Positions 21,956 to 63,680 are shown, counted from the stretch's first letter. The stretch is 64,000 nucleotides of DNA from a virus (IMGVR_UViG_3300050821_006485:1-64000), one strand, 5' to 3'. The notes: generated by a model not told the origin, from the sequence alone. Translations and numbers: made by a program.

Positions 21956-21990
21956 AATATGCTCAAGACCTCGAATCTTGAGACAGAGTT

Positions 21991-22033
21991 GGGAGATGCC
22001 ATATACATCTCCCTTCTCGCATCTTATATGGAG
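21991..22033 (+). promoter_or_regulatory. SD-masking pseudoknot (HEG leader 1)
   Basis: Stem GGGAGATG/CATCTCCC; loop CCATATA is complementary to TATATGG(AG) at 22025-22031. Confidence 0.75.
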
Positions 22034-22039
22034 AAAAAA

Positions 22040-22681
22040 GTGGGAGAAACATTTTATACGTATTTTTGGCTAAGAGAAAACGGAACTCCTTATTATGTTG
22101 GTAAGGGAAAAGATAAACGTGGATTCGAAAGTAGGGGGCATAGAGTTTCTTGTCCTCCTGAAGACAGAATTATAATACAATACCACCCCAGCGAGGAAGA
22201 AGCTTTAGAGGTAGAAATATTCTTCATAGGGTATTATGGAAGAATAGATTTAGGTACAGGGTGTCTTTCTAATTTAACTGACGGGGGAGAGAATCCTCCA
22301 AGCATGTTAGGGAAAAAACTTTCAGAGATTACCAAAAAGAAAATAGGAGATGCTCACAGAGGCAGGAAATTATCAGATGAGGCCAAAAGAAAGATAAGTA
22401 AGGGGCATACAGGTAAAAAGCATTCAGAAGCGCAGAATCGTGCTCATAGCATTGCTATGACGGGCAGAAAGCATACAAAAGAAGACCTTATTAAAATGAG
22501 TGCCGCACAAAAGGGCAAAAAACTCTCAAAAGAGCACATTGCCAGCATTATAGAGGGCGCAAAAAAGAGAACTATCAGAATACCAACGTGCCACCCAGAT
22601 AGAAAACATGGTGCTTTTGGTTTATGCAAATCTTGCTATGGTAAGAAGGTATATTGGGACAACAAAGGGAGGACTCAGTGA
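22040..22681 (+). CDS. GIY-YIG-type homing endonuclease with NUMOD3 repeats
   Basis: FYTY...PYYVGKG...R, E..FI..YGR, NLTDGGE and repeated KLSEETKxKIS-like units; likely start GTG 22040. Confidence 0.85.
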   Translation: MGETFYTYFWLRENGTPYYVGKGKDKRGFESRGHRVSCPPEDRIIIQYHPSEEEALEVEIFFIGYYGRIDLGTGCLSNLTDGGENPPSMLGKKLSEITKKKIGDAHRGRKLSDEAKRKISKGHTGKKHSEAQNRAHSIAMTGRKHTKEDLIKMSAAQKGKKLSKEHIASIIEGAKKRTIRIPTCHPDRKHGAFGLCKSCYGKKVYWDNKGRTQ

Positions 22682-22926
22682 ACGAACCAGTAACCCAAGA
22701 AGAATTCAAAGCGCTGTCGGAAGATGTAAAAAATTTAACTACTTCTGTTAAAGATTTAGCTAACTTTGTCTGGCGTATTAATGGGACTTTGCACGGAGAC
22801 CCAGAACGTGGTATAGGTTCTACTATGTATGATTTAAAAAACAAAGTGCGGCATTTATGGGAAACATCGTTACCTGCACAGGTACGCATGGGCAAGGAAG
22901 TCCTAAGGCAAATTAGCAATGGTTAA
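22678..22926 (+). CDS. hypothetical protein
   Basis: GTG after GGAGG, coupled to the upstream stop codon. Confidence 0.55.
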   Translation: MNEPVTQEEFKALSEDVKNLTTSVKDLANFVWRINGTLHGDPERGIGSTMYDLKNKVRHLWETSLPAQVRMGKEVLRQISNG

Positions 22927-23293
22927 TGATCTCGGTTTAAACATTAGACAGTTCTTCCGCTCGCTTTTTGGAAGCCGTGTCTCGGAGATTTTAGAAACTT
23001 CGATTCTACAACTCAGACAGGATACCGAGCAACGTATCCAAGAGAAGAACGAAGTAATTGCAAGTCTCCGAGAAGAAAAAGCCCAGCTCGTAGCAGAGCT
23101 TACCCTTTATCGTCTCCGAGCGGGCCTCCCAACCGCTTCCCAGTTGTCTGCTAAGAAGCAACCGAGCTTTCTCTTCGACACCCCACAAAAAACTTCGTGG
23201 CAACTGGCGCAGGAGGCCCACGACGCGGAGAATGCCCGTCTAGACGCAGAGGAAGCCTTAGCACTCGCTCAGAAGAAAGAGGCCTCCCAGTGA
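22919..23293 (+). CDS. hypothetical coiled-coil protein
   Basis: Within the operon, overlapping its neighbours. Confidence 0.65.
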   Translation: MVNDLGLNIRQFFRSLFGSRVSEILETSILQLRQDTEQRIQEKNEVIASLREEKAQLVAELTLYRLRAGLPTASQLSAKKQPSFLFDTPQKTSWQLAQEAHDAENARLDAEEALALAQKKEASQ

Positions 23294-28455: not shown

Positions 28456-28457
28456 TT

Positions 28458-31028: not shown

Positions 31029-31158
31029 TGTGGTTATCTTCCAGTAAGCAGGAGGTGATCCCATGTAACAACATTTGGCATACAGCGGCCTATTCATAAG
31101 TATGCAGGGGAAGGGCTAAAACCCCTTCTCTGGCCGCGTATATTGTGCGGAGGTACAA

Positions 31159-31347
31159 ATGTCGCAGAGTAGGGCACTATCAATTTCAGGAAAACCGGTT
31201 CAAAAGGGGGATTTTGTTTCCGTAACGGGCCAGATTGTTTCTATTTCTGGAACGGGACCCAATGCTGCTGCTACCATTAAGGCGCACGATACCGGCGCTA
31301 CTTTTACAATTCCGACCAGGGAGCTACACGCTTCACAATCACTTTAA
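31159..31347 (+). CDS. small beta-rich protein (paralog family A)
   Basis: GDFVSVTGQIVSISGTGPNA. Confidence 0.7.
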   Translation: MSQSRALSISGKPVQKGDFVSVTGQIVSISGTGPNAAATIKAHDTGATFTIPTRELHASQSL

Positions 31348-32249: not shown

Positions 32250-32319
32250 TAGCGAGTGCTTGGCAAGTGCTAAGCGAAAGCAAAGCGAGTGCGGAGCGAA
32301 CGCGGAGCGAGTGCCAAGC
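32250..32319. repeat. six phased 11-bp units (consensus NAGCGAGTGCN)
   Basis: TAGCGAGTGCT TGGCAAGTGCT AAGCGAAAGCA AAGCGAGTGCG GAGCGAACGCG GAGCGAGTGCC. Confidence 0.8.
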
Positions 32320-32321
32320 CA

Positions 32322-32370
32322 GAACGGGAGGGTGACTTTCACACCCTCTTGTTCGTCCTATGAAAGGGGA
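32322..32370 (+). promoter_or_regulatory. SD-masking pseudoknot (HEG leader 2)
   Basis: 13-bp stem; loop CTTTCA is complementary to TGAAAG(GGGA) at 32361-32366. Confidence 0.7.
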
Positions 32371-32373
32371 CAA

Positions 32374-33003
32374 ATGAACGGGATAATTTACAAAGTAACA
32401 AATATTGAATCTGGAACGTCTTACATTGGACAAACCACAAAAACATTGAAACAGAGGTGGACAGAGCATATTTATGATGCCACCGGTAATAGGAGCAAGG
32501 ATAAAGGATGTTATTTTCACCTTGCTATAAAGAAATATGGCCCAGAGGCATTTAAGTTGATTGTTCTGCAAGAATGCTTAAATAAAGAGGCGTTGGACTC
32601 AGTAGAAAAGTTCTATATTTCCCATTTTAATACGGTTCGTCCCTTTGGTTATAATTTGTCTCTCGGAGGCTCTGGAGTAATGCACGGTAGGAAAATGAGT
32701 GCAGAAGCCAGAGCAAAAATTAGCGCGGGGCTTATGGGAAGACCGGGAGCACAATTTAGTCATACCCCAGAAGCCAGAGCAAAAATAAGCGCATCCCTTA
32801 TGGGTAACAAAAGGTCAGTAGGTAGAAAACTTTCAGATGAAACTAAGGCTAAGATGAGAGCCGCTCATTTAGGAAGAACCTACAAAAAGAAAGACAAAAG
32901 TTTAGATTCAAGCAACGATGCTCATGATAGTGGCGAAAACACTTTAAATATGCGGATTGAGAAAGTTGCGAGTACTAAAGATGACTCAGCGATAGGCCAG
33001 TAA
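32374..33003 (+). CDS. GIY-YIG homing endonuclease with NUMOD3 repeats
   Basis: IIYKVTN...SYIGQT...R, AIKKYG, E..YI, GYNL..GG; start ATG 32374. Confidence 0.9.
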   Translation: MNGIIYKVTNIESGTSYIGQTTKTLKQRWTEHIYDATGNRSKDKGCYFHLAIKKYGPEAFKLIVLQECLNKEALDSVEKFYISHFNTVRPFGYNLSLGGSGVMHGRKMSAEARAKISAGLMGRPGAQFSHTPEARAKISASLMGNKRSVGRKLSDETKAKMRAAHLGRTYKKKDKSLDSSNDAHDSGENTLNMRIEKVASTKDDSAIGQ

Positions 33004-33060: not shown

Positions 33061-35330
33061 ATGCCATTACTTGAGGCTGCTGTAGAAGCAGTCGAACTTG
33101 ATGCATTTGCTAAGGAAATCCCTAGGTAATAAGGTCGGGGATTTTATGCCAAAAATACTTAGGACCTAGTATTTCATGGAACTACAGCATATTCCATGTT
33201 CAAGGCAGAGGCTCAATATTAGGGCCTCGATAAACCCGCTCTAATTGTCTCGAAATCTGAAATGACAACGAGGCGGAAGTCAAGTTTATTTGTAACAAAA
33301 CTTGACACCGTGAGAGATCAAGCGAGAGGGAGCCAAAAGGCTATGCAATGATCCGAGCTGCATGAAACAGTAACATGCAGAGGTTAGCAGAAATGACTAA
33401 TCCAAAATACAGTAACAAAGCTGACTAATATTCCTGTGAGCAATCAGTCACAGGCAGGCGGAGTAACTCGTCCGTCATTCCGCATCCCGTTTAGGGTGCA
33501 GGCTGGCGCGTCTATCTCCCAGGGAACCGGAAATGCCGACTCCATGAACCGAGGCACTGGAAGTAAATGGGCTTCCTTTGCGCTAGCACCTGTTTACCTA
33601 TTTAACGTCTAAAAATTTCATGGACGTTTAAAATTTCGCTGTATCGGTGGAACGCCTGAAAAGGCCAATACCGAGGCAACCTGCCTAGGCAGAGAGTCCG
33701 TAACGACTACACGCGAAACAGGCATAACGCTTGATGATATAGTCTGAACTGCATGGTAACATGCAGAAGGCAGCAGAAATGACTGCCTCATAACCTAAAG
33801 TTATGTAACAATTTTTGGTGAAATTTCCTGGCTCGCCCAGGCTTCCACGGATAGCAAGCAACGCGGTCTCTTCGCCGTAAAAGCCCAGGAGATGAAGAAC
33901 TCTTTGGATGCTGCAATGCAGGGCATCGAGGGGTTAATAAATTCCGACGGGAGTGGTATGATCGACCAAATCCCGGCCACCGCAGTCATTAACAACGGTA
34001 CGGGTACTGGTGACAGTACCTCCAGCATCGTTGGGATGAACGTGGCGGTAGCATTCACCGACCAACAGACGGTAACGTTCTGGACGGTTGGTGGTGTTCA
34101 GCGTACGACCGGCGTATCCTCGGCAGTAGTTAGCTACTCCGATGGACCGAGCAACACTTTGTTCTTCAGCACCGCCCTACCGACCGGTGTGGCAGTAACG
34201 GATTACATCGTGGTGAACGGCGCGACCTACGGCTCTGGTGCCTCTATTTTGGGCATCAAGGCTTGGGACGTGAACAGCAATACCGGGAGTATCGCCGGGC
34301 TTAACCGAGCGACTTACCCAGGCCGTCTTAGCACGCCTACCATTAACTTGGCGGGTGCCGCTATTACGCCAGGCATTGCCCAGCGAGCAGAAGTGCTCCT
34401 AGGCCGTGCGTTGGGTCCTGATGCCGACAGCATTAAGTCCGGCATTTGGTATGGGCCGCCCGAGCAAGCCTTTGCGCAGAGCAATCTGATGTGAACTAAA
34501 CGCATCATCAACTGGTAACAGTTGAAAGTAAACCAAGAGAATTCGGTGGAACACCCAATAAGGTCAATACCGAGCCGAGCCTGTTAGCGCAGGAAGGTGT
34601 AACGACTATCTCGAAAGAGAGTAGGGTCTAAGTAGACTCGAAGCACTTGGCACCCGTAAGGGTTGAAGATATAGTCTGTTCTCGCAGGTAACTGTGAGAG
34701 GGTAAGCGGAAACGGCTTGCCCGCAACGAACAAGACAACGTTCAAATTGCGAACGCACAGGAAATCAAGGGCGATAAAACGCTAGACATGTCCAAGAAGT
34801 ATTTTTCGGATTAACAATAGTCCCCTCAATCGGAAACGGTTGAATGAAAACCGAGAGAATTCAGGGAAACGCCTTAGTGGCCAATCCTGAGCCGAGCCTC
34901 AAAAGAGGAAGGTGCAACGACTATCCTGTAATGGGAGTAGGGGTCAGTGACCTCGAAGCACTTGGGACCCGTAAGGGTTATGATATAGTCTGAGCTTGTA
35001 GGTAACTACAAGAGTTTAGATGGAAACGATCTAAACGTAACGTAACTGACGTTTGGTGGCCGTAAGTATCACAAGAGTTGGACAGCAACCGCAAGCCGAA
35101 TGGATTTGCTGGTGCTAGACAACTGGTACATAGGAGAGCTGTCACCGCTAGAACTGTACGATTTTGGCGGCGGCAATGTGGTAGCTCCCGTGCCCGATAT
35201 TGGCAACGGGACTTCAAATGGTAGTTATCTTACCTCCCACATGTTTGCTTATAACACATGCTTCAACCTGGCTAATGCAGCTCCGCGAGCTGGCTTATAC
35301 GTTCAGAATGCAGCTGTGCCAACTGTGTAG
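33061..35330 (+). CDS. major capsid protein (putative), six exons: join(33061..33123,33163..33213,33424..33610,33818..34492,34735..34811,35049..35330), 444 aa
   Basis: Removing five U|...G| introns gives one continuous 1335-nt frame from MPLLEAAVEAVELDAFAKEIP|DLVF to YVQNAAVPTV. Its position after portal/scaffold and its size fit an HK97-type MCP. Confidence 0.8.
33124..33162 (+). other. 39-nt core-less group I-like mini-intron
   Basis: Three in-frame stops; P1 AAAUCCCU/GGGGAUUU with U.G at the junction; P10 AGGUC/GACCU; ends in G. Confidence 0.75.
33214..33423 (+). mobile_element. group I intron (MCP intron 2), 210 nt
   Basis: P1 GAGGCU/GGCCUC, P10 AAUAUUAG/CUAAUAUU, variant P7 GATCA/TGATC, P9.0 AGC/GCU, omega-G. 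Confidence 0.85.
33611..33817 (+). mobile_element. group I intron (MCP intron 3), 207 nt
   Basis: P1 AACGUCU/GGACGUU, P10 AAUUUCA/UGAAAUU, GACTA...GATATAGTC. Confidence 0.9.
34493..34734 (+). mobile_element. group I intron (MCP intron 4), 242 nt
   Basis: P1 GAUGU/GCAUC; core GAGAATTCGGTGGAAC...GACTA...GATATAGTC homologous to the TerL intron. Confidence 0.9.
34812..35048 (+). mobile_element. group I intron (MCP intron 5), 237 nt
   Basis: P1 GGAU/GUCC; homologous core with compensatory changes (TCAGGG/CCTGA in place of TCGGT/ACCGA). Confidence 0.9.
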
Positions 35331-35410: not shown

Positions 35411-35413
35411 AAA

Positions 35414-35456: not shown

Positions 35457-35461
35457 AACGA

Positions 35462-53199: not shown

Positions 53200-54319
53200 A
53201 ACTCAGGATGTTATTCTTGGCGTTCTCTCAGGTCCCAATTATGGTTTTAAGTACCCCGGTGTCGAGTCATACATTGTCAGTATAAATCGCTCGGGATTTG
53301 CCGGGCGTAAAGTAATGATCGTCTGGAATATTCATCCAGAAACGCGTAGGGCGTTGGTTGTACACGGGTTTGAAGTTGTAGATTTATCGCCGTGGCCCCC
53401 TGACCGCTTCTTCCACGCTAGAATGCGCGTGGCGTGGGAGTACATGCGGGATCATTATAAAGAATTCAGATATTGTTTTTGGCTCGACATTAAGGACCTT
53501 TTGCTGCAATCCGATCCGAGTTTATGGATGGAACAAAACATTGGAAAAGCGCAACTCGTAGGTTCAACCGAGTGTACCGCGCTTGCCGAATGCGAAACAA
53601 ACAACCTTTGGATTCGTACAATTTTTGGGGACAAAGTTTTCAACCAAATTGGTCACGAAGAAACAATAAATGGCGGGACTTGGGCAGGTTATGCTGAGCC
53701 CATGATGGAAGTATTCCATAGGGTTCATAATTTGATTAAAGACTATGGCGGCCCTTATCCGCCGTGTCAAGCAGGCATAAACGTAGCTCTGCATACAGAT
53801 TTTAAAAGTATGCTATACATTCCTAGATGGGAGAAGGGCTTTGCTGCGTGCATGCATCCGTTTTGGAGTCCTTGGCGTGTGCCAATGGCCCCTTATTTAC
53901 GAGATAAGCCGCCCGTTCTTGATTTGAGAACGTGTGTACTCTATCCGGGAATAGTTAGCGGCCCTAACAACAAAGCAATCCCATTTAACGGCAATTGGGG
54001 GCAGAATAAGGATTTCAGCATTTGCTCGGCATCCGCCGGGCCTATGCACTGCGTAGAATGCGTGGAAAACTCCCAGAATCGGCCATTTTCTATTTTGCAC
54101 GGGTATGATCGTGATTGGAATCTTAAAGAAATGTTTGAGTTCAAGTACCGTTTCGACCAAGGCGATTGGAACTTGCAAAAGTTCAAGGAATATAAGGAGC
54201 TGATGGTGCCGTCGTACCAAAGGGAATTCAAGAGGGGTCTCAGGAGACCCGAGGCTGTTATGGCAGGTGCTAGGTTGGGAACCCAAGCGAGTGCCAGGCA
54301 GTTGCATAGGAGACCTTAA
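53192..54319 (+). CDS. putative glycosyltransferase
   Basis: LDIKDLLLQSDP, INGGTWAG, ILHGYDR. Confidence 0.6.
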   Translation: MNKTQDVILGVLSGPNYGFKYPGVESYIVSINRSGFAGRKVMIVWNIHPETRRALVVHGFEVVDLSPWPPDRFFHARMRVAWEYMRDHYKEFRYCFWLDIKDLLLQSDPSLWMEQNIGKAQLVGSTECTALAECETNNLWIRTIFGDKVFNQIGHEETINGGTWAGYAEPMMEVFHRVHNLIKDYGGPYPPCQAGINVALHTDFKSMLYIPRWEKGFAACMHPFWSPWRVPMAPYLRDKPPVLDLRTCVLYPGIVSGPNNKAIPFNGNWGQNKDFSICSASAGPMHCVECVENSQNRPFSILHGYDRDWNLKEMFEFKYRFDQGDWNLQKFKEYKELMVPSYQREFKRGLRRPEAVMAGARLGTQASARQLHRRP

Positions 54320-54323: not shown

Positions 54324-55052
54324 ATGAAAGTACTTATAGGGGTGATTACCTGCCATAAGCACTCGGCGTTTCAGCAAGCCATAAGAAACACTTGGCTACC
54401 ACATACCCCTAAAGAGGTAGACGTAAGGTTTTTCTCGGGGAGGGGAGCTAAGCGAGAACCAAGGGAAGACGAAGTTTTTTTAGAAAATGCGGGTGACGAA
54501 TACCTTGATCTGCCAGAAAAGGTCAAGGCAATGTTCACTTGGGCGTATGAACATGGCTATGATTTTGCCATGAAACTAGATAACGACGTGGTTTTAAAAC
54601 CACAGGAATGGTACAACGGTTTTTATCGGGACGACTTCTCGGGCTATGGTGATGTCAACGTAAAAAATGGGGAAATCAAAACTCCATGGGGATTCGCCTA
54701 CGTCCTCAGCAGGAAAGCAATGGAGTTGATAGTGAACGCTCCGCTTCCGGGACAGCCCGGTTCTATGTGGAGTACGTCGCATTCTAACGATGAAGCGTTT
54801 GTAAGCTCAGTTTTGCACTGGAACGGTATTTATTTGCACAACGACTCTAGATACGTGCTATTCAGGGGGAAACCGACTGAGCGAGACCTAAGCAAGGTGC
54901 ATAGACCATTGCGTAGGCCTAGGCCGATGGAAAAAGAGTGCCAGGCGGGTGCATTTGCTACCTGTATTTATTTGAACTGGAACGGATTTCATATGACTCC
55001 AGACGAAGAGATTCTCAGAGAGTTTCATAGAGTATTTTCTGAGGGTAAGTAG
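54324..55052 (+). CDS. GT-A glycosyltransferase (GT31-like), paralog of 51653
   Basis: IRNTW, D.Y..LPEKV, KLDND, GFAYVLSRKA; start ATG 54324. Confidence 0.8.
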   Translation: MKVLIGVITCHKHSAFQQAIRNTWLPHTPKEVDVRFFSGRGAKREPREDEVFLENAGDEYLDLPEKVKAMFTWAYEHGYDFAMKLDNDVVLKPQEWYNGFYRDDFSGYGDVNVKNGEIKTPWGFAYVLSRKAMELIVNAPLPGQPGSMWSTSHSNDEAFVSSVLHWNGIYLHNDSRYVLFRGKPTERDLSKVHRPLRRPRPMEKECQAGAFATCIYLNWNGFHMTPDEEILREFHRVFSEGK

Positions 55053-55057
55053 AACAA

Positions 55058-55557
55058 AAATTAACTAATTGTATCCGACTAGCTCGGGGAGGAAATTAAA
55101 TTATGCCACAAGTACAATTCGAGTTACCAGAGCAGCCTATCGGCTCGGCAACAAGTGCAACATCACAAGTCAGTTTGCTGGAATTAACGTTTCCAGACAT
55201 TACGCAAAAAAGTATACGAGCATGGGGCATCATTACATTTAGTCCGGGCTCTTATGTAAAGGGCGGACTGTTTGTAAACCTCATGCAATTCGCGGATGAC
55301 CGAGCAATCGACTTCAACGGATTTTTGCGTTGCAAAGTTTGGAACGAAGACCCGGTTCCGCCGGGTGGAATTAATTATACGTACCACTATGCACCAACTT
55401 CGGACGTTGTTCAAATTTTTAATAACGGAGTGGAGTTAGCTACTGGGACGCAAATTCCTGCGGCTATTCTGAATGACGATACCTTGTTTTTAGCCACCTG
55501 GGACCGTACTAACGTTCGTGGATAAGATTTTAGAAGTAAATTAACTAATTGTATCCG
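55058..55557 (+). repeat. 20-bp direct repeat AAATTAACTAATTGTATCCG ahead of two paralogous genes
   Basis: Copies at 55058-55077 and 55538-55557. Confidence 0.8.
55103..55525 (+). CDS. putative virion protein, paralog of the C-terminal domain of 55589
   Basis: ELT.PDIT.KS.R.WG...MQ.AD.R..DFNGFLRC...QIFNNGVELA...WDRT.VRG is shared. Confidence 0.75.
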   Translation: MPQVQFELPEQPIGSATSATSQVSLLELTFPDITQKSIRAWGIITFSPGSYVKGGLFVNLMQFADDRAIDFNGFLRCKVWNEDPVPPGGINYTYHYAPTSDVVQIFNNGVELATGTQIPAAILNDDTLFLATWDRTNVRG

Positions 55558-55588
55558 CCAAAAAGCGCGGGGAAATGGAAAAAAAATT

Positions 55589-56641
55589 ATGCCAACACTT
55601 GATTCATTATTGGGTACCGCATCAAACTTTGATGTACTTGCGGGCTCTACGGTTACAAACTCTGGAGCAACTGTTCTTACTGGAGGTGATCTAGGTCTTT
55701 CTCCTGGTTCATCTGTAACGGGCTTTCCGCCAGGCGTAGTTACTCCTCCTAATGTACAGCACATTACCGATTCTGTCGCAGCCAAGGGTCAATCCGACCT
55801 TACTGCCGCATATACGTACTTTGCCGGATTAGCCGGAGCTACGCCTATCGTTGGAAACTTAAACGGTCAAACATTTGTTCCCGGTTTGTATAGCGGCGGC
55901 GCGATTGATCTGGCAGTAGGTGGAACCGTAACCCTTAACGGAAACGGCGACCCAACTGCGGAATTTATTTTCCAAGCCGCGTCCACTCTTACCTTCAACA
56001 ACGGTTCTACTGTTGTCCTTACAAATGGTGCAACCGCCAAAAACATTATATGGCAAGTTGGAAGCTCTGCAACCATCGGAACCACGGCGGTTGTTTCTGG
56101 GGACATCGTGGCGCTGACTTCAATTTCCGTGAACACCGGGGCCACGGTCAACGGCAGATTACTCGCCAGAAACGGCGCGGTGACGTTGAGTGGTAACACT
56201 GTTACTGCCCCGGCAACTGGCGCGGGAACGGGTACGGGAGGTGGCGTAGTAGCGATAGGCACATCCTCAGCGAGTGCCACGGTGACGCTAAGCGAACTCA
56301 CACACCCAGATATTACAGGAAAAAGTTTAAGATCATGGGGAGTGGTGACTATTAATCCTGGAGGTTACACAAGCGGAGGAATTCCGTTCGGATTGATGCA
56401 GTACGCGGACCAACGTACGGTGGATTTTAATGGGTTCTTGCGTTGTGAGGTCTACGGCGAGGAACCTAAGAACAACATCATATTGGCAACTATTGCATAC
56501 CGTTATACCCCAGTCACAGATTCTCTCCAGATTTTTAATAACGGGGTAGAACTTGCCGGGGGCTCTGCTATACCAGTCTCTGTGTTATCTGACACCTTGC
56601 TTTTTGAGGCACAGTGGGATCGCACTAGCGTAAGAGGATAA
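55589..56641 (+). CDS. ice-binding protein (DUF3494) fused to a phage domain
   Basis: LGTA.NF.VLAGSTVTN.G.T...GDLG.SPG.SVTGFPPG, PGLY, FIFQ, WQVGSSATIGT, GRLLARNGAVTL. Confidence 0.9.
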   Translation: MPTLDSLLGTASNFDVLAGSTVTNSGATVLTGGDLGLSPGSSVTGFPPGVVTPPNVQHITDSVAAKGQSDLTAAYTYFAGLAGATPIVGNLNGQTFVPGLYSGGAIDLAVGGTVTLNGNGDPTAEFIFQAASTLTFNNGSTVVLTNGATAKNIIWQVGSSATIGTTAVVSGDIVALTSISVNTGATVNGRLLARNGAVTLSGNTVTAPATGAGTGTGGGVVAIGTSSASATVTLSELTHPDITGKSLRSWGVVTINPGGYTSGGIPFGLMQYADQRTVDFNGFLRCEVYGEEPKNNIILATIAYRYTPVTDSLQIFNNGVELAGGSAIPVSVLSDTLLFEAQWDRTSVRG

Positions 56642-56680
56642 TTCAACAACAATTTCCTGAGATTAATTACCTCAGGCAGC

Positions 56681-56732
56681 CGTGGGGAATGCCTACCTAT
56701 GCATGGGCATTCTCCGCGCATCTTCATAGGAG
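56681..56732 (+). promoter_or_regulatory. SD-masking pseudoknot (HEG leader 4)
   Basis: 14-15-bp stem; loop CCTATG is complementary to CATAGG(AG) at 56725-56730. Confidence 0.75.
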
Positions 56733-56739
56733 AAAAATA

Positions 56740-57393
56740 ATGCCGCATCATAAGAATACACATTGTAAGCATGGACATGAGTACACGGTAGAAAATACAA
56801 GGATATTACCTAACGGGGCAAGAGTTTGTCGAGCATGTAAGCGTGAATGGGCAAGAGAAAACACGGGATTAGAAGAGGGGGAAGTAAAGCAAAATAAAAA
56901 TCAGAACACTGACAAAACCCATTGTCTTCGTGGTCACGAGTTTACATCGGAAAACACATACATGAAGGGCGAACGTAGGATTTGTATAATTTGTAGGAAT
57001 GCCGCCCAGCGCGATAGACAAAGGATTGCAGAAGCAAAATACAGAGCGTTAAAGAAATCCAGCCCTGAATTATGGGAAAAAGAAAGACGAAGAAGAAGGG
57101 CACAACAACTTAAAAGAGTCGGTTGGAATATTGATCTTTTTGAAGAGACCCTAAACCTGCAAGAAAATAAATGCGCCGTTTGTAGAACTGTTCTAGATAT
57201 TAATGCTATAAAGAACGGCGCTACTAACCAGGCTCATGCTGACCATGAGCACGTAGAGCCTCCAAAGCCTAGAGGTATTTTATGTGGCAATTGTAATTTA
57301 GGCATTGGAAATTTAAAAGAAAACCCAGAAATTATGTTGGCAGCAATTGCCTACGTAACTAAATGGAAGGAAGAGAGGTCGTACGGGCCATAA
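56740..57393 (+). CDS. endonuclease VII-family homing endonuclease with two THC.xGHE Zn modules
   Basis: THCKHGHE...CRAC and THCLRGHE...CIIC; Q...CAVC, DHEH, RGILC..CNLGIG. Confidence 0.85.
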   Translation: MPHHKNTHCKHGHEYTVENTRILPNGARVCRACKREWARENTGLEEGEVKQNKNQNTDKTHCLRGHEFTSENTYMKGERRICIICRNAAQRDRQRIAEAKYRALKKSSPELWEKERRRRRAQQLKRVGWNIDLFEETLNLQENKCAVCRTVLDINAIKNGATNQAHADHEHVEPPKPRGILCGNCNLGIGNLKENPEIMLAAIAYVTKWKEERSYGP

Positions 57394-58693
57394 TTTATCG
57401 CAGTTAGGTAAGTAATTGCCTCATCAATCAGCAATGATTGTTTGTAACCTAGAGAATTCGGTGGAACACCCGATAGGGTCAATACCGAGCCGAGCCCAGA
57501 AATGGGAAGGTGTAACGACTATCTCGAAAGAGAGTAGGGAACAGCGTTCCCGAAGCACTAGGGGTCCTGCAAAGGGATCAAGATATAGTCTGGACTTATT
57601 AGTAATAATAAGAGAGTAAGCGGACGCGGCTTATTTGTAACAATAATCGACAGCATCATTAGACGCCTTTTCTGGATTAATCACCATAGCCGATGCAGTG
57701 GACCTCCCTGAAGGCGCGAGTCCTAGAAATTGGGACGTTCAGTTTAACGTAGGTAGCGTACGCACCAGGTCCGGTTTATTGAGCGTGTACTCTTACGCGA
57801 CCACATTAATAATCACTTCCTATGTTCTTCATTACGGTATAGCAGTGTTTGGGTATACTGGCGTAGAACCAACGGTTAATGAGGGGTTTTTGTTGTCCGG
57901 TTTTATAAACAACCTTTCATATCTGAATGGCCTCCAGGTATTTGTCGTTTCCGCGACAGCAACAACCTTCTCGGTTTTCTTGCCATTTAAGGACGACGGT
58001 CCATTTTTCAATCTCACAGGTTCTGCGGTCTCCCTTTCAGGCGCATTCGCTGGGCCTAACCTAGGCAACACCGTAACTTCCACCGGGTGGACCAACCCCA
58101 GTGGAATCCTAGGTAACGTTTCTTACGCCTCGGCAGTCGGTGGCGCAGCCTTATCAGCAACAATGGTTCCTACGGCGGCAGGAAATGAGTCGTCTAGTAA
58201 TCCGGCGTGGACCGCCCCTGGCAACGTATACACTACCGGCTCGGCATTCGCCCAAGTTACTCTATCTATCGCCGCAGGTGGTGGCGGAGGGGGCGGTGGT
58301 GGTGGCGGGGGTGGAGGTGGAGGGGGTGGCGGCGGAGGCGGTTGCTTCTCCGCAGCGGTTTCCGTTCGTACCCCAGAAGGTCTTATCGAGCTGGGAAATG
58401 CGCCCGGCACTCTCCAAGTTTCTAACGAAACCGGTACGCATAGTGCGCGGCTTATCGTTCACAAGGATTACAAAGGTTGGATGGTGGTAATCGAAGAGGA
58501 TAAGCTTGTCACCATAGATCACGTTATGAGGTCCGGGGATAAATGGGAACCGGCTGGGCTTAAATATCACAATCTACGCCGAGTCTGGTTCGTGGGTACG
58601 GTCTTCGATTTACACGTTATCTCCGATAATGAGGCAGATCATCACTACATACTGTGGAACGGTGACATAGCCCATAACAAACAACTAAAATAG
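57383..58693 (+). CDS. tail protein N-part with Gly22 and C-terminal Hint domain, spliced: join(57383..57409,57650..58693)
   Basis: 9-codon exon (ACG GGC CAT ... GGT) joins ACA GCA TCA in frame. Hint domain CFSA...VFDLHV...HHYIL..GDIAHN at 58343-58678. The start codon is uncertain. Confidence 0.7.
57410..57649 (+). mobile_element. group I intron, 240 nt
   Basis: P1 AGGU/GCCU; 137 bp identical to the TerL intron; omega-G. Confidence 0.88.
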
Positions 58694-58705
58694 AAGGGAG
58701 TAACC

Positions 58706-61700
58706 ATGGCGGTATCCGCATTGCTGCTGGCAAGCAGTATAAACTTTAACATACCCAGTAGCGCTACCGTGCTTGGCATTTCCACGTCGTTCGCAGCGCA
58801 AGCCGTGGGCACCGGAACTCCCTCTATTAACATTGAACTTGCTTTAAACGGGGCACCGATAGGGTCGTATATAAACGTTCCTATCGGCAGCTCCCTGAAG
58901 ACCTATACTCAGGGTTCTTCCGCATTTCAATGGGGAACTACGTTAACACCCGCCATTGTAGATGGCAGTTCGCTTGGCATTCTCCTGCAAGCCGAGTTGG
59001 ACACCTCCGGGACCTCAGCGGTCAGCTCCACGTTTAGCGTAAACAACCTCTCGGTGTCGGTATACTACACCACGTCTTTGCTTTCTGAAATTTTGCAGGT
59101 CGAGACGTTTTCCTTTGCGGTACCGGCAACATCTGGTATATCCGGCATCGGGGTGAGCTTTGTTGCGTATTCCAGCCTTACTACTAACTTGTCGGTGCAG
59201 ATGATTAAGGCCGAGGTGCCGGTTGGTACGCCGAAAAGCGTAACGCTAAGCAGCACACCTACTATCTACACGATTGGGGCATCGAACGATCTGTGGGGCA
59301 CCACGTGGATTTCTTCTGATATCAACAACACAGGTTTCGGTGTACAGATAACCGGGTCGGGGGTTGGTACTACATTTGCCAAAGATTTAGATATCTTGGC
59401 TTACCTTACTCCGTCTTTGGCTGATTTTCTGTACGTAAAAACATATGAGCAGAACAACGGGCAAATTACTACTCTTGCCTTAGATGATTCTGGAATCATG
59501 TGGAAGGAGGACGTTAACAATAACCCTAACGTTCTTTCCACGGCCTTGGTTGGTATTATTCCCGGTTCTTATGCCAAGAGCGCCACGGCGGATAACCAAG
59601 AGTACATCATGTTCTCAGACCTCTCCATTGGCACGGAGAGACCCAGAGTTTTAAGCGGTAACACTTTTTATCCCCTGTCTCAAGTAGGACCGGGAGCACC
59701 GCCATCGTTCCAGGCATCAATCGGCTCGATAAGCAATATACTGAGCCTTAGCCATTATTCTCTATCTGGGAATGTAGTTACCTTTACCTATACGGGTACT
59801 ATGCCTACGGTAGGCAGCATTTATATTCTCAGCAATGTTGTTTCCTACCTAAACGGACAGTCGGTTATTGTACTTAGTACCGGATTATCGCCCACCACGT
59901 TTGAGGTGCAATTTCAACACCCTGATGATATTGGCTCAGCAATTAATGGTACGGCCACGCCTACTTTTAGTTATTCCATCCAGTCGATTACGCAACCGGT
60001 GCCCTATTCTGGCATCGCAGAATTTTTGTGGAGCGCGGGTCCGGGACAGACTTCTCCGGGATCAACGGTTACGGTTTATTATAAGCACGATACAACTGGT
60101 GGACAGGACCCAGGGTTATCTTCCACAACAAACCCTGTTTATGTTAACTTAGCACATGCTACAGGAGGGGCGGCACAGTTTAATGGTACATGGCTTGTTA
60201 ATGGCACGGGATTAGGAAATCCTCCGGGGGTAGGGGGTAATTATTGGTACTTTACGTTTACTTATACGGCATCCGGTAGTTACAGTCAAATTTTTCCTCC
60301 AGGAAATCCTGTTTCATACCAAATTACCCTTGCAACCTTAACCACATCTACGCCCATCCCTAACCTTACAGCGGGTAGTCCGATTACTATTACCGGGGTT
60401 ACACCCACCGGTTGGAATAGCAACTGGACAATAGTTACACCCCTGACTAGCGGAGTTCTTAATATTAGTGGCACCCAGATGGATGCCTCCGGTAACGCCT
60501 CGTATACGTACAACGTACAAAGCGGGGCCGGTCCTTTAGTCGGGGAAATTGTTACTGTTACGAATTGTACCAATGCGGCTATATTTAATGCCACCGGAGT
60601 TATTTCTTCTGTGGCAGGCGGAATATTTCAGATTGCCGGATTCCCGCCAAATCATCCCATACCGTTTGCGTTTGAAGCTAATGGCGTGGGTTCTACGTTT
60701 GGTACGCAGTTTACATTTGATCCCGGCGCAGTGGTCGCGGGCACTACCGGCCAATCTATTTTTGGCAACGCTGGTTCTGGTGGAAAGGTTACCATTGTTG
60801 GCAGCTCGATTCAGCCTTTAGGGGCCGGTACTCGCCAAGCGGTAGTGTTCTTTATTACGCAAAGCGGCCTGGAGACTGCCGTGTCGCCGCCGGTAACATT
60901 TACCACGTCTTCTAACGCCAATGAACTAGAGGTTACTAATATTCCTATCGGCCCTCCAAATGTCATTGCAAGAGGCATAGCGATTACCGAGGCGGGCGCT
61001 AACGGTGTGCCGGGAGCTAGTTTTTACGTGATCCCTAACAACGTTGTGTTAACCGTGGGAAACACCGTCACTACGTACCCATCCACAATTATTAGGGATA
61101 ATATTACCACATCTGCTAAGCTTTCGTTTACGGACGCGGTGCTCCTGTCTTCCCAAGAAATAGATGTGCAGGGCAACAACCTGTTTAATCTAATCGAGCT
61201 GGGCAGTTCCGCTTGGTGCCTGCCTTACGCATCCCGCATGTTCTACGGAATGCAGCTAAACAAGGTTGATAACTTTAATAACCTCACGTTCGATGGTGGT
61301 TACCTACCAAACCCAGGAGGTAACTTATTTCCACTTGGTTGGATTGGAACCGATGTAGCCAATACCAATCTTATTAACAGCCCGGTTACCGGCATGTCTC
61401 TATACATCAAGAACGCCGGTTCTACGGTAAAGTCCGGGGTTGGTCTAGTTTATCAGACTGCCTACACGGACCCCTACCAAGTTCCAATAATTTTGCCGAA
61501 TACCTTGTATTCCGTTAGAGTGGCAGCAAGCAATCCTTCTGGAAACGCGGTGGGGTCTCTGGTTATCGACTTGACGGACTTCAATACGGGAATCGGATTT
61601 GGCATCACCTACGGAACGTTCTCGGTGCTGTTAGCCAGCATGTCTACGAATACTTCGGTATTTACTGGGGCATTGCTAACCACACCCTTTACACAAGGCG

Positions 61701-62971
61701 TAAGCCCTGCTTTGCAACTAAGGGTGAGCTTAGCGAATGCCGGGCCGGGGGCCGATGTACAGGTGGACAGGATAGAGGTATTCCCGACTTTGGAGCCTTA
61801 TCTGCTCACGCAGGTCTATGGCTCGTACATTGATAATTTGGAGGCGATAGATGCCAGCGGTTCCGGGGGGATTATTAATACCGCCTCGGAAAATAGCCAA
61901 ACGTGCACGGGCGGGTTCGTGATGCACGACATCATGTATTTGCTCAAAACGAACTCGCTTTATTCCACGCAAGATATCCCAACGAGCGAACCGGGAGGCT
62001 GGAGCCTCAGAGAGGTGAGTAATAAGGCCGGTTCTATTGGAATACATTCTTATTCCTCAGGCGAAGAGTGGGCAGTGATGGCGTGCCGTGCGGGGATTTA
62101 TGGTTTTAACGGCGGGCAACCTGTTCCCATTAATTGGGAAATCAGACAAATTTGGGAAGCAATTAATTGGGACGCTGGTAAGACAATTGTATTGCGCAAT
62201 GATGTAACTAATAAAATGATGTATTGTGCAATCCCTTTGCCGACCGGTACTGACCCAGTTACAGGTATAACTACAAAGTCTATAAAGTGGCTTCCTTTTG
62301 CCCCCTATAACCCGGCTCCTATATCTCCAAATGTTATGTTGGTTCTTAATTACCAAGCAATGGATTCTTTTGAGGAACTAATAGGAGCATCAGGAATTAG
62401 GACCACGATGTTTGGCACGCTTGCCGCTGTTGATATGAAGCGTAAGTGGACTATTTGGCAGATACCAAGTCCGTACATGGATTTTATTATGAGGCCAAAT
62501 GGAATTGATACTCCTCTATTCGTGTGTAACGGAATTGATTCTTCAAAAATTTATGAATTCGAAGACAACCAATTTAGCGATGATGGTACAGCAATTTTCA
62601 GCCTCTATACAACCTATGGGCATGTTAATGCTGCTAAGAGTGCGACCATACCCCTGTTCGGTTATCACGCGAAGAGATACACGGTATTTCAAGTGAACGC
62701 AAAAGGATCGGGTAACATGCAAGTTAGAGTTATACCTAATGTGCTTGAAGCTCGTTACCCTTATACTATACCAGGCGGAATTAATCTTTTTGACCCAGCT
62801 AATGACGATGCCTTTAGACCTTTAAACATAAAAGGTAATAGAGTGTTTTTGGAATTTTCTACCAATGCCGTTGGTTCATGGTTCCAAGTTTCTAAATCAC
62901 TGTTAACTGGCAAGGCCGATCCTTGGTCCAGTTTGAATCCGACCGGAGGATTAAATACCGGCATAAAATAA
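58706..62971 (+). CDS. large tail/virion structural protein
   Basis: 1421 aa, G/S/T/P-rich beta protein; the C-terminal half has a beta-propeller (tail nozzle/stabilisation-like) character. Confidence 0.75.
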   Translation: MAVSALLLASSINFNIPSSATVLGISTSFAAQAVGTGTPSINIELALNGAPIGSYINVPIGSSLKTYTQGSSAFQWGTTLTPAIVDGSSLGILLQAELDTSGTSAVSSTFSVNNLSVSVYYTTSLLSEILQVETFSFAVPATSGISGIGVSFVAYSSLTTNLSVQMIKAEVPVGTPKSVTLSSTPTIYTIGASNDLWGTTWISSDINNTGFGVQITGSGVGTTFAKDLDILAYLTPSLADFLYVKTYEQNNGQITTLALDDSGIMWKEDVNNNPNVLSTALVGIIPGSYAKSATADNQEYIMFSDLSIGTERPRVLSGNTFYPLSQVGPGAPPSFQASIGSISNILSLSHYSLSGNVVTFTYTGTMPTVGSIYILSNVVSYLNGQSVIVLSTGLSPTTFEVQFQHPDDIGSAINGTATPTFSYSIQSITQPVPYSGIAEFLWSAGPGQTSPGSTVTVYYKHDTTGGQDPGLSSTTNPVYVNLAHATGGAAQFNGTWLVNGTGLGNPPGVGGNYWYFTFTYTASGSYSQIFPPGNPVSYQITLATLTTSTPIPNLTAGSPITITGVTPTGWNSNWTIVTPLTSGVLNISGTQMDASGNASYTYNVQSGAGPLVGEIVTVTNCTNAAIFNATGVISSVAGGIFQIAGFPPNHPIPFAFEANGVGSTFGTQFTFDPGAVVAGTTGQSIFGNAGSGGKVTIVGSSIQPLGAGTRQAVVFFITQSGLETAVSPPVTFTTSSNANELEVTNIPIGPPNVIARGIAITEAGANGVPGASFYVIPNNVVLTVGNTVTTYPSTIIRDNITTSAKLSFTDAVLLSSQEIDVQGNNLFNLIELGSSAWCLPYASRMFYGMQLNKVDNFNNLTFDGGYLPNPGGNLFPLGWIGTDVANTNLINSPVTGMSLYIKNAGSTVKSGVGLVYQTAYTDPYQVPIILPNTLYSVRVAASNPSGNAVGSLVIDLTDFNTGIGFGITYGTFSVLLASMSTNTSVFTGALLTTPFTQGVSPALQLRVSLANAGPGADVQVDRIEVFPTLEPYLLTQVYGSYIDNLEAIDASGSGGIINTASENSQTCTGGFVMHDIMYLLKTNSLYSTQDIPTSEPGGWSLREVSNKAGSIGIHSYSSGEEWAVMACRAGIYGFNGGQPVPINWEIRQIWEAINWDAGKTIVLRNDVTNKMMYCAIPLPTGTDPVTGITTKSIKWLPFAPYNPAPISPNVMLVLNYQAMDSFEELIGASGIRTTMFGTLAAVDMKRKWTIWQIPSPYMDFIMRPNGIDTPLFVCNGIDSSKIYEFEDNQFSDDGTAIFSLYTTYGHVNAAKSATIPLFGYHAKRYTVFQVNAKGSGNMQVRVIPNVLEARYPYTIPGGINLFDPANDDAFRPLNIKGNRVFLEFSTNAVGSWFQVSKSLLTGKADPWSSLNPTGGLNTGIK

Positions 62972-62999
62972 TATCTCATAGCTTAGCGGCTTTGAGCTA

Positions 63000-63045
63000 G
63001 AGCTGGAACAGCCTGATACTGCTTCCAGCTCGATCTTATCAGGAG
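63000..63045 (+). promoter_or_regulatory. SD-masking pseudoknot (HEG leader 5)
   Basis: Stem GAGCTGGAACAG/CTGCTTCCAGCTC; loop CCTGATA is complementary to TATCAGG(AG) at 63037-63043. Confidence 0.75.
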
Positions 63046-63050
63046 AGAAA

Positions 63051-63680
63051 ATGATAGTATATTTAGTAACAAACAAACATAACGGAAAACAATATGTAGG
63101 GCAGACCGTAAAACCTCTTCAAACTAGATGGGCGCAGCATGGGAATGACACTTCTCATGTATCTCTCTTACGCAACGCTTTGAAAAAGTATGGAACAAAT
63201 TCTTTCGTAATAGAAATTATCCATGAATGTCTGCATAAAGAAGAAATGGATTTTGTAGAAATATTCTACATTTCATTTTTGAATACTAAATCTCCTAATG
63301 GTTATAATTTAACAGACGGGGGAGAGGGAAGTTTAGGGCATACGCCTACAAAAGAAGCAAGAGTTAAAATGAGTTTGGCTAAGAAAGGATTACTACCGCC
63401 AAAGCCCATAAAAAGGGGACAAAGGTTATCCCCGAGTACAGAAATTAAAAAGGGACAAAGATTATCTCCTAGTACTGAATTTAAAGCCGGATTTATTCCT
63501 TGGAATAAAGGTAAGTCGCATCTAAAAGGGGCGCTTAATCCTTTTTACCACAAAAAACATTCTCCCGAAGCTTTACAAAAAATGCGACTAGCTAAACTCG
63601 GTAGAAAGCAATCTCCAGAACATGTAGCTAAGAGAATGGCCAGTATATTAAAAAGGAAGGAACTAGATGGCTCACGGTGA
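63051..63680 (+). CDS. GIY-YIG homing endonuclease with NUMOD3-like repeats
   Basis: IVYLVTN..NGKQYVGQT...R, ALKKYG, E.FYI, GYNLTDGGEG. Confidence 0.9.
   Translation: MIVYLVTNKHNGKQYVGQTVKPLQTRWAQHGNDTSHVSLLRNALKKYGTNSFVIEIIHECLHKEEMDFVEIFYISFLNTKSPNGYNLTDGGEGSLGHTPTKEARVKMSLAKKGLLPPKPIKRGQRLSPSTEIKKGQRLSPSTEFKAGFIPWNKGKSHLKGALNPFYHKKHSPEALQKMRLAKLGRKQSPEHVAKRMASILKRKELDGSR

Follow-up and report, generated by a model that had tools for sequence, protein, structure and literature searches.

In T-even phages, the homing-endonuclease genes I-TevI, I-TevII, I-TevIII, segB and Aeh1 mobE are repressed by hairpins that sequester the ribosome-binding site (RBS) (PMC2988022). In Aeromonas phage 25, the RBS of seg43(25) directly follows a very stable hairpin that does not include it and whose role was left open (PMC2988022). 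The leaders described here resemble the T-even hairpins as cis structures in which the Shine-Dalgarno sequence (SD) of a selfish nuclease gene is paired within a polycistronic phage message. As with seg43(25), they have a stable hairpin next to the RBS, again before a free-standing nuclease gene.

SD-sequestering pseudoknots with short stems and a conserved ligand pocket are known from the preQ1-I/II and SAM-II riboswitches, and kissing complexes between molecules or distant domains from ColE1 RNA I/RNA II and TAR-TAR*. For T4-type phages, Arbiol, Comeau and Krisch reportedly described in 2010 mobile regulatory cassettes, the PeSLs, which consist of an early promoter and a stem-loop; we know of no report of a PeSL pairing with the SD.

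In the uncultured phage analysed here, all free-standing homing-endonuclease genes of the late-gene block begin behind a common folded leader of ~87 nt, which extends from a few bases past the upstream stop codon to the nuclease start codon. The genome of 101,202 bp holds six such leaders; the sixth (genome positions 79150-79200, ahead of an HNH gene at 79201-79812) lies outside the window, i.e. the whole stretch of 64,000 nt that was analysed. The leader forms three adjoining hairpins, P0 (stem of 7-9 bp), S1 (12-13 bp in total, of which 8 bp form the upper stem and the rest a lower one, with a loop of 6-7 nt in which C is nearly always first) and the 3-5-bp mini-hairpin S3. A fourth helix, S2, pairs the S1 loop (strand S2a) with a downstream strand (S2b) that runs into the SD. 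The leaders of the window and the genes behind them are listed below, with scores against the covariance model R1; the metagenome scan was selected on P0 alone, and S2 is absent from R1.

21956-22042, + strand: leader 1, covariance-model match (R1 75.9 bits); P0 21962-21982; lower S1 21986-21988 with 22016-22018; upper S1 21991-21998 with 22006-22013; S2a (loop) 21999-22005; S2b 22025-22031; S3 22022-22024 with 22032-22034; SD 22030-22034; GTG start 22040
22040-22681, + strand: nuclease gene 1, divergent GIY-YIG with NUMOD3 (Pfam NUMOD3)
32295-32377, + strand: leader 2, divergent (R1 23.3 bits, E 0.001); S1 32322-32334 with 32342-32354 (13 bp); loop 32335-32341; S2a 32336-32341; S3 32355-32359 with 32367-32371 (5 bp); S2b 32361-32366 in the S3 loop; ATG 32374
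32374-33003, + strand: nuclease gene 2, GIY-YIG with NUMOD3 (Pfam)
35385-35465, + strand: leader 3, most divergent (R1 just 13.5 bits, E 0.79), detected by the structure-only scans; upstream hairpin 35386-35405; S1 35414-35424 with 35433-35443 (11 bp); loop 35425-35432; S2a 35426-35432; linker 4 nt; S2b 35448-35454; SD 35451-35456; ATG 35462; S3 not clear
35462-35989, + strand: nuclease gene 3, Endonuclease VII family (Pfam PF02945)
56650-56742, + strand: leader 4 (R1 31.5 bits); P0 56656-56676; S1 about 56681-56695 with 56704-56718 (15-16 bp); S2a 56696-56701; S3 56721-56723 with 56731-56733; S2b 56725-56730; SD 56729-56733; ATG 56740
56740-57393, + strand: nuclease gene 4, Endonuclease VII family (Pfam)
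62969-63054, + strand: leader 5 (R1 68.6 bits); P0 62975-62996; S1 63000-63011 with 63019-63031 (one bulge); S2a 63012-63018; S3 63034-63036 with 63044-63046; S2b 63037-63043; SD 63042-63047; ATG 63051
63051-63680, + strand: nuclease gene 5, GIY-YIG with NUMOD3 (Pfam)

In agreement with a preliminary description of this DNA, the five loop/pre-SD pairs start at 21999/22025, 32336/32361, 35426/35448, 56696/56725 and 63012/63037, and the three extra hairpins that it had reported 5' of S1 are present as P0 of leaders 1, 4 and 5. The same description had spoken of two unrelated nuclease families, which has to be extended to at least three (GIY-YIG, EndoVII and HNH). For gene 1 the GIY-YIG score of 16.5 bits stays under the cut-off, while PHROG 314 (homing endonuclease) is matched with an E-value of 1.6e-21; this gene follows directly 3' of the large terminase gene (20020-20238, intron, 20456-21955). 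Gene 5 is preceded by a 1421-aa virion-type gene and followed by a conserved 209-aa gene that starts at 63667, inside the end of gene 5. Judging from such neighbours, e.g. the large terminase gene, the setting may be a strongly transcribed late operon. Gene 4 runs at its 3' end into the first exon (9 codons) of the next virion gene, and beyond this exon that gene is interrupted by a group I intron without an ORF (core at 57400-57612 in the Rfam intron alignment). A location of leader 4 and gene 4 inside this intron was excluded, as the 9-codon exon separates the end of the gene from the intron core. The same exon arrangement is seen at this site in two relatives, and in an intron-less relative the exon is contiguous. 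Hence, gene 4, starting at 56740, lies upstream of the intron and outside it, and the earlier designation of these genes as free-standing holds.

When the complete genome (101,202 bp, both strands) was scanned on the basis of folding energy for hairpin loops matching a downstream 6-mer, ~80 loose matches were obtained, only 6 of which reached an SD and an ORF start (>=50 aa). In this structure-only scan, nuclease genes stand behind 6/6 filtered matches and none precedes another gene, so the equally good matches before other genes that the preliminary description had named as a counter-argument do not occur in this genome. With the ORF filter off, the real genome yielded 8 matches, whereas 20 locally shuffled versions averaged 0.85 (range 0-3). 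The leader is confined to nuclease genes on the virion-gene strand; two HNH-type genes on the minus strand, with TTG or GTG as start codons, are without it.

Similar leaders are found in related uncultured phages, from which 112 (101 distinct) were collected for the covariance analysis that had been proposed earlier; the metagenome scan with the P0-only pattern returned 113 stretches. Four related IMG/VR contigs carry at least 14 leaders, and in three related records R1 has 8, 6 and 3 copies, every one on the + strand. Structure-only scans of two whole related genomes gave 9 and 7 matches, 8 and 6 of them before nuclease-like ORFs. The exceptions are leader-like elements before a 331-aa ORF (genome G001) and, without P0, before core gene B (G002), neither of which is a recognisable nuclease. 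The genes behind the collected leaders are of the GIY-YIG, EndoVII, HNH and MUG113 types, and Pfam assigned GIY-YIG (13), NUMOD3 (16), EndoVII (11), HNH (6), HNH_3 (1) and AP2 (2) domains among 62 downstream ORFs. A perfect complement of at least 6 nt between loop and pre-SD strand was detected by a strict parser in 58/68 unique leaders, and in most of the others by eye.

Covariation supports four helices, P0, S1 including its lower stem, S2 and S3. Pairing is seen in 94-95% of cells across the 101 distinct leaders, compared with 73% after shuffling (reached in 0/500 shuffles) and 44-58% in slid controls. For S2, 86% of cells are paired, with double changes at 6/7 pairs and as many as five types of pair at a position; the ortholog of leader 5 (L017:880-964) carries two double compensatory changes in this helix. 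For S3 the paired fraction is 89%, with changes on both sides at 3/3 pairs; at least 3 bp form in 88/96 leaders, and the mean of 3.30 bp exceeds the 2.79 +/- 0.05 of shuffled partners. The top of an all-against-all mutual-information scan consists of exactly P0, S1, S2 and the lower S1 stem. The structure is assigned to the sense RNA on account of its U.G wobbles (77 at a single P0 pair, 15 at a single S2 pair), which on the opposite strand would read A.C. The loop/pre-SD pairing, described earlier as kept despite differing sequences, is thus under selection.

S3, a small helix absent from the preliminary description, is a new component of the leader. The pyrimidine linker supplies its 5' strand, as an internal anti-SD, and the SD core its 3' strand: the last 3-5 nt of the linker and the SD core form the stem of a small RBS hairpin, the 6-8-nt loop of which is S2b. 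S2 is therefore a loop-loop contact with exact complementarity between the loops of S1 and S3, and its end lies on the initial one or two G of the SD; jointly, S2 and S3 cover the whole SD. The linker had been noted as conserved, which it is, but it is not a plain linker, since it pairs with the SD core. Of the H-type pseudoknot proposed earlier, the pairing of the loop with a 3' strand stands, while the plain H-type topology does not, given that S2b is itself a hairpin loop and S1 has a lower stem. S3 by itself is just marginally stable. Nested folding by itself leaves the SD mostly paired in four or five of the genome's six leaders; for leader 2, both hairpins are predicted and the unpaired probability of the SD is near 0.

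By placing the SD in a local stem right before the start codon, S3 corresponds to the T-even type of RBS hairpin. It departs from the T-even cases in belonging to a conserved leader of three hairpins that unrelated nuclease families have in common, and in having a loop complementary to that of another, long hairpin; the leader has no sequence similarity to those cases. In the T-even type, an embedded late promoter frees the RBS on short transcripts; here, a sigma-70-type promoter scan revealed neither enrichment nor any site within the leaders, with a consensus that may not be the one of this phage. The leader shares with preQ1-I/II and SAM-II the pairing of a hairpin loop with a strand further 3' that runs into the SD, so that ribosome access would depend on folding. 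Unlike in those riboswitches, this strand forms the loop of another hairpin, the sequence of the paired loop varies freely, and unpaired bases show hardly any conservation. With the SD and the positions fixed by the search pattern set aside, strong conservation among unpaired bases is limited to the C that opens the loop (98%) and to the anti-SD linker. A riboswitch was rejected, as these bases form no pocket and no Rfam riboswitch matched; the earlier suggestion of a switch operated by a protein or ligand finds no sign of a ligand pocket or protein site among the conserved unpaired bases.

The leader does not appear to be catalogued already, a possibility that had been raised. With Rfam 15, only tRNAs and five group I introns reached the threshold in the window; under permissive filters, the best scores for two leaders were 8-16 bits against thresholds of 35-88, and no Rfam model matched the leader even at E up to 10. 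No comparable leader was found in the searchable literature, nor does one occur in the six closest cultured-phage relatives of the GIY-YIG genes.

Our preferred interpretation, which we hold to be probable though well short of certain, is that of a conserved modular mRNA leader of free-standing homing-endonuclease cassettes that damps nuclease translation in a clade of uncultured phages. SD masking is the most economical reading: with the entire SD base-paired by S2 and S3, 30S subunits would load rarely or transiently on the locked leader, nuclease output would be low or gated despite the place of the gene in the virion-gene block, and the flanking genes would stay undisturbed. As the RBS is covered by paired stems, the fold most likely limits the output of the DNA-cutting nucleases, judging from the sequences.

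The helices are under geometric tension. When the covarying lower S1 stem and S3 are both formed, the gap is just 1-2 nt, and the loops of S1 and S3 would therefore be unable to meet in cis; full S1, S2 and S3 would not all be compatible in cis without strain or melting. The leader fold may be two-state. Instead of acting as a constant damper, it would alternate between a nested form, with P0, full S1 and S3 and a weakly held SD, and a knotted form, in which the lower S1 stem or S3 has melted, S2 has formed and the SD is firmly held, and would permit translation only for a limited time after synthesis or upon a shift of the balance by some factor. The covariation of lower S1, S2 and S3, which apparently cannot all coexist in cis, would be explained in this way, and the near-constant distance of 17-20 nt between loop and S2b regardless of the length of S1 is consistent with it. 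Furthermore, the SD behind the fold is strong (GGAGG-type) and the start codon mostly ATG; since low expression would need no more than a weak site, as in the two minus-strand HNH-type genes without the leader, this hints at gating over plain dampening. Such alternation is nevertheless unlikely in our estimation, since no pocket or protein site is conserved among the leader bases and a strained single fold, e.g. with 1-2 frayed pairs, would suit most members: in a lenient straight-line test of the linker against a contiguous S1, with S3 ignored, 52/58 parsed leaders pass and the linkers of 6/58 are too short.

The steric conflict in cis could also be avoided if the S1 loop of one leader copy paired with the S3 loop of another, perhaps seeded by self-complementary P0 loops, in which case repression would grow with the message concentration. 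The two partners lie in closed loops of 6-8 nt, the usual kissing form, and 4-6-nt palindromes occur within several P0 loop types. Short AU-rich palindromes are, however, frequent in loops by chance, that of the commonest P0 type is imperfect, and a closed two-fold dimer would be awkward in geometry, so that we regard intermolecular pairing as very improbable. The leader shares with ColE1 RNA I/RNA II and TAR-TAR* two closed 6-7-nt loops with full-length complementarity, but its hairpins are neighbours of very unequal length, and the contact in cis is hence strained.

Another function, with SD pairing as a secondary matter, would be that of an intercistronic element for processing, stability or insulation, P0 ending and protecting the upstream virion message or blocking the sliding of terminating ribosomes, and S1 beginning and protecting the nuclease message. 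P0 begins 3-14 nt past the upstream stop codon in 4/6 leaders of the genome, P0 and the following junction are conserved without a role in SD masking, and RNase processing is known beside T4 homing-endonuclease genes (PMC2988022). This reading seems doubtful to us, more so than an alternating fold, as it leaves the match of the S1 loop to the S3 loop and SD in >90 leaders unexplained and neither a terminator-like nor a promoter-like signal is found at the leaders. An intrinsic terminator was specifically rejected, with no terminator-like site at the + strand leader hairpins between 55000 and 64000; the bases 3' of S1 are the conserved anti-SD linker.

Remnant leaders persist where the nuclease ORF has been deleted, and the leader is therefore tied to the cassette. 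The earlier term portable is apt, as one family of leaders stands before unrelated nuclease genes at different sites. Different nuclease families are headed by the same leader type, even by the same loop pair; in two near-identical phages, the ORF deletion begins exactly past the ATG of the leader; and at one site the downstream genes are 96.5% and the leaders 77% identical while the nuclease ORFs are unrelated. The last three observations would suit a recombination or landing module at the DNA level for the swapping of nuclease ORFs, with an incidental RNA fold. Compensatory changes in four helices and the many U.G wobbles show selection on the sense RNA, however, and as the sole explanation such a module is close to refuted; we give it hardly any credence. 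Modular shuffling fits our preferred interpretation too, and the leader may have it as an additional property. Like a PeSL, the leader is a short conserved stem-loop module before many unrelated accessory genes in one phage group and may aid shuffling; it differs in being bound to the nuclease genes of the virion-gene block.

As a separate observation on the 5' part of the leader, P0 and its conserved loop types take no part in the explanation by SD masking.

The source record, of which the window covers the first 64 kb, comprises 101,202 bp with 46.8% G+C and is 91% complete (CheckV); no close relative of the genome was found in the phage collection, by DNA or protein. Six of its nuclease genes, all free-standing, are preceded by an RNA leader. 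The preliminary description had assigned the five in the window to two unrelated families; counting a sixth leader outside the window, three are present (GIY-YIG, EndoVII and HNH). The minus strand of the whole genome carries four further nuclease-like ORFs, all without a leader, two of which resemble homing endonucleases, have TTG or GTG as start codon and lie directly against the gene 5' of them.

Nuclease genes with a leader and leaderless homing-endonuclease-like ORFs
22040-22681, nuclease gene 1, divergent GIY-YIG with NUMOD3
32374-33003, nuclease gene 2, GIY-YIG
35462-35989, nuclease gene 3, EndoVII
56740-57393, nuclease gene 4, EndoVII
63051-63680, nuclease gene 5, GIY-YIG
Genome 79201-79812, nuclease gene 6, beyond the window, HNH endonuclease (PHROG 374, E 1e-17), leader at 79150-79200
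Genome 86154-86730, minus strand, leaderless HNH-type homing-endonuclease-like ORF in the minus-strand gene block
Genome 97897-98397, minus strand, leaderless HNH-type homing-endonuclease-like ORF in the minus-strand gene block

Each of the five window leaders contains a GC-rich hairpin (S1) with a 6-8-nt loop (S2a), the reverse complement of which (S2b) lies 17-23 nt downstream and runs into a GGAG-type Shine-Dalgarno sequence (SD), with the start codon 6-10 nt 3' of the SD. Reading the five stretches confirmed all five pairs between loop and pre-SD strand (S2), together with the other coordinates first proposed for them. The whole genome was scanned twice on both strands for a hairpin loop with a downstream complement, once strictly and once based on energy. 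Roughly 80 loose matches resulted, of which only six reach the SD and start of a real ORF. All six precede nucleases, so that within this genome no equal match stands before a non-nuclease gene. When the ORF filter is omitted, 8 matches are found in the real genome vs a mean of 0.85 in 20 locally shuffled genomes. A strict-scan match before a start at 53444 (53344-53446) is a chance match within coding sequence. The stretch at 31066-31161 was rejected as a seventh copy, as its hairpins come without a loop/SD complement and it reaches 13.7 bits (E 0.72) with R1, our covariance model of the leader; this multi-hairpin stretch lies 5' of a 62-aa ORF and has its SD partly inside a 4-bp stem. Upstream of leader 2, at 32260-32320, there is no standard upstream hairpin (P0), and a run of short GC-rich direct repeats is found instead, flanked by the two arms of a 6-nt inverted repeat. 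The apical loops of P0 (window 21969-21975, 56662-56670 and 62983-62988; genome 79133-79140) sort into a small number of distinct sequence types throughout the family. Palindromes of 4-6 nt are present in several of these types; they might allow two copies to pair with each other, or be due to chance in AU-rich loops.

With nuclease gene 5 as query one related 4-kb contig was found, and with the 1421-aa gene 5' of it four related contigs at ~53% protein identity, while the EndoVII gene at 56740 gave no match among viral contigs. The same structural scan detected at least 14 more leaders of very regular anatomy in the related contigs. In the orthologue of leader 5, two loop positions differ, each compensated in the downstream strand. 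R1 was built from 14 leaders with P0 and the upper S1 stem as the only structure input. It recovers all six leaders of the genome (75.9, 68.6, 33.7, 31.5, 23.3 and 13.5 bits) and finds 8, 6 and 3 copies, throughout on the plus strand, in three related records, one of which is a complete genome of 109,724 bp with terminal repeats. Structure-only scans of the two largest relatives gave 9 and 7 matches ending on an SD and start, 8 and 6 of which precede nuclease-like ORFs. Two exceptions were noted. A 331-aa ORF of no known family lies behind a full leader in the 109-kb relative. In the 81-kb IMG/VR relative G002 (54330-54387, equal to L023:14400-14455), a conserved core gene follows a 10-bp hairpin with a 1-2-nt linker and no P0, whose 7-nt loop is complementary to the bases entering the SD. 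At this site no nuclease gene separates the 1421-aa-type gene from the core gene that follows it. The hairpin represents either what is left of a cassette or a native instance of the same device.

To obtain a sample independent of S1 and S2, metagenome contigs were scanned with a pattern derived solely from the most frequent type of P0. This pattern matched 113 stretches; the 80 loci listed gave 68 unique leaders. A perfect complement of at least 6 nt between loop and pre-SD strand was found by a strict parser in 58 of the 68, and in most of the remaining 10 it appears if a mismatch in S1 or a G.U pair is allowed. Among 62 ORFs 3' of these leaders, Pfam identified GIY-YIG (13), NUMOD3 (16), EndoVII (11), HNH (6), HNH_3 (1) and AP2 (2) domains, and several Pfam-negative ORFs resemble the HNH-type gene at 79201.

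Covariation was evaluated on two alignments. In 14 leaders, 94% of the positions of P0, S1 and S2 were paired vs 73.5% in shuffles (0 of 500 reach 94%), and sliding the partners by 1-3 columns gave 40-48%. For the alignment A4, 112 matches (101 distinct leaders) were aligned to R1; here 95% were paired vs 72.6% in shuffles (0/500). In an all-against-all mutual information scan of A4, the top signals were exactly S1 with its lower stem, the stem of P0 and five pairs of S2. No further long-range pair emerged, and no other partner for the loops was found near the cassettes. As S2 had been left out of the model, A4 is not fitted to it. S2 is nevertheless 86% paired, with changes on both sides in six of seven pairs and up to five pair types per position, which bears out the original observation that the pairing is kept while the sequence changes. 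The loop pair does not evolve faster than the stems, since S1 and P0 are equally variable in the larger sample. U.G wobbles are frequent: a single P0 pair accounts for 77 and a single S2 pair for 15. They identify the sense RNA as the folded strand and rule out an antisense-strand or DNA-only structure. A purely DNA-level role of the leader is likewise nearly excluded, as wobble-containing covariation speaks against it.

The segment between S1 and S2b, previously regarded as a conserved linker, forms a helix strand that covaries with the 3-5 bases after S2b, the SD core. The two strands of this helix (S3) exist in a number of variants that match each other and give stems of 3-5 pairs. At least 3 bp flank S2b in 88 of 96 leaders, and S3 has a mean length of 3.30 bp vs 2.79 +/- 0.05 bp with shuffled partners. 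On A4 it is 89% paired, with changes on both sides in all three pairs. As S3 closes around S2b, S2b becomes the 6-8-nt loop of a small hairpin at the ribosome-binding site (RBS). Hence, the proposed pseudoknot holds with regard to the pairing of loop and downstream strand, but the downstream strand is itself a hairpin loop, which makes S2 a contact of two hairpin loops. Within the SD, S2 accounts for the one or two G at the 5' end and S3 for the core. Nested folding by itself already pairs most of the SD in four or five of the six leaders from this genome.

Whether all helices fit together was evaluated for 58 parsed leaders with a simple A-form calculation and a lenient straight-line criterion. 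Considering contiguous S1 alone, an H-type arrangement is allowed in 52 of the 58 leaders and disallowed in the six whose stem has 13 bp and whose linker has 4-5 nt. With the lower stem and S3 also formed it is allowed in none. As the lower S1 stem covaries, full S1 has 12-13 layers and leaves 1-2 nt before S3. By rough arithmetic, separate from the straight-line test, a kissing-complex-like stack of upper S1, S2 and S3 needs a strap of ~8 nt; no more than 6-8 nt can be freed for it, and this requires melting of the lower stem. Whatever the length of S1, loop and S2b stay an almost constant 17-20 nt apart. In silico, these constraints would fit one strained fold, two alternating folds or pairing between molecules.

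The most economical and most likely reading of these sequence patterns is that the leader acts in cis as a lock on the RBS and travels with the nuclease cassette. S3 would be the RBS-sequestering hairpin, and S1 and S2 would add a second layer. In T-even phages, hairpins that sequester the RBS keep the expression of homing-endonuclease genes low (PMC2988022, section 12). The putative lock agrees with this one well-studied case in that S3 is such a hairpin, and differs from it by the added layer of S1 and S2. Since a strong SD and an ATG stand behind the lock, the three helices are mutually strained and the conservation of P0 is left unaccounted for, some weight has to be given to other options. 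A gated or two-state device is possible, although rather unlikely. Lower S1, S2 and S3 covary but probably cannot coexist unstrained in one molecule, and for this reason we tentatively propose, at low confidence, that the leader works as a lock that is either bistable or senses concentration. In the bistable version, a timer or trigger would switch a nested "open" fold to a loop-loop "closed" fold and back; otherwise closure might occur only by pairing with a second copy. Pairing between molecules as such appears very improbable. The conserved P0 might instead serve in processing or insulation, which we consider improbable; no intrinsic terminator was called at the plus-strand leader hairpins within 55000-64000, and neither a sigma-70 promoter nor an enrichment of such promoters was seen in the leaders.

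Homing endonucleases require enough expression to spread and too little to harm the carrier phage; outside T4, few free-standing ones have, to our knowledge, a described means of striking this balance. A transferable RNA leader locking the ribosome site would be a general solution for a whole clade of environmental phages. If the bistable or concentration-sensing reading were true, the selfish nuclease cassettes of many phage lineages would be equipped with a portable and self-contained device that governs dosage and whose 7-nt loop pair can be freely re-addressed. That homing-endonuclease messages can have their RBS sequestered is already known. In Rfam, no family matches, whether gathering thresholds are applied or E values as high as 10 are admitted, and a literature search for a prior description returned nothing beyond the T-even hairpins; according to these searches, there is no earlier description of a conserved and portable leader that has several helices and a covarying loop-loop lock. 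It is not a general feature of GIY-YIG homing-endonuclease genes, being absent in the six closest cultured-phage relatives (Staphylococcus PH15, Enterococcus BC611, Vibrio ValKK3 and KVP40, Bacillus Izhevsk and Rhizobium P10VF). More than 100 natural compensatory variants of the loop-loop/SD lock represent a ready data set for studying how such contacts may tune translation. The leader is also a sensitive marker to find and delimit nuclease cassettes and their remnants in metagenomes, and could serve as a portable attenuator in synthetic operons.

The suggested portability of the leader is corroborated by the presence of one P0 type, and even one loop pair, before different nuclease families. 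At one site in two phages with 96.5% identical downstream genes, leaders of 77% identity precede unrelated nuclease ORFs. P0 starts 3-14 nt past the upstream stop codon in four of the genome's six leaders, and in two cases the following gene starts inside the end of the nuclease gene, so that the cassette occupies all of the intergenic space. Remnants were also found. The near-identical contigs L025 (14607-14770) and L026 (4889-5600) share 103 nt through the leader ATG and then diverge: L026 has an intact 202-aa HNH gene behind the leader, whereas L025 has lost the HNH ORF from just past the ATG up to its last ~75 nt, so that leader and ATG are fused to the HNH tail and the leader is in frame with the core gene that follows. 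Another three leaders, from the metagenome set, are truncated remnants.

The nuclease genes lie after the intron-containing large terminase gene, flanking an intron-rich gene at 33.0-35.3 kb, and between large virion-type genes. Five group I introns were detected at the Rfam threshold in the 64-kb window, and the host gene of each has a free-standing nuclease gene with a leader as its neighbour, which calls to mind collaborative homing.

ORF-less group I introns in the window
20205-20422, ORF-less group I intron
33600-33766, ORF-less group I intron
34483-34698, ORF-less group I intron
34803-35012, ORF-less group I intron
57400-57612, ORF-less group I intron

Nuclease gene 4 (56740) ends 7 nt 5' of a group I intron core, yet lies outside the intron. 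Leader 4 as part of the intron was discarded, as the first exon of the next gene sits between the nuclease gene and the intron core. This virion gene consists of a 9-codon first exon overlapping the nuclease end, the ORF-less intron and a second exon from about 57650. The layout is the same in two relatives, while one relative is intron-less with a contiguous exon. In the 109-kb relative, a remnant leader lacking S2b and the SD lies directly 5' of the 9-codon first exon. Within 57370-57700, the first exon, after whose ninth codon the intron follows, has no in-frame ATG, GTG or TTG; where two relatives have an aligned TTG start codon, this genome has ACG and the 109-kb relative ATC.
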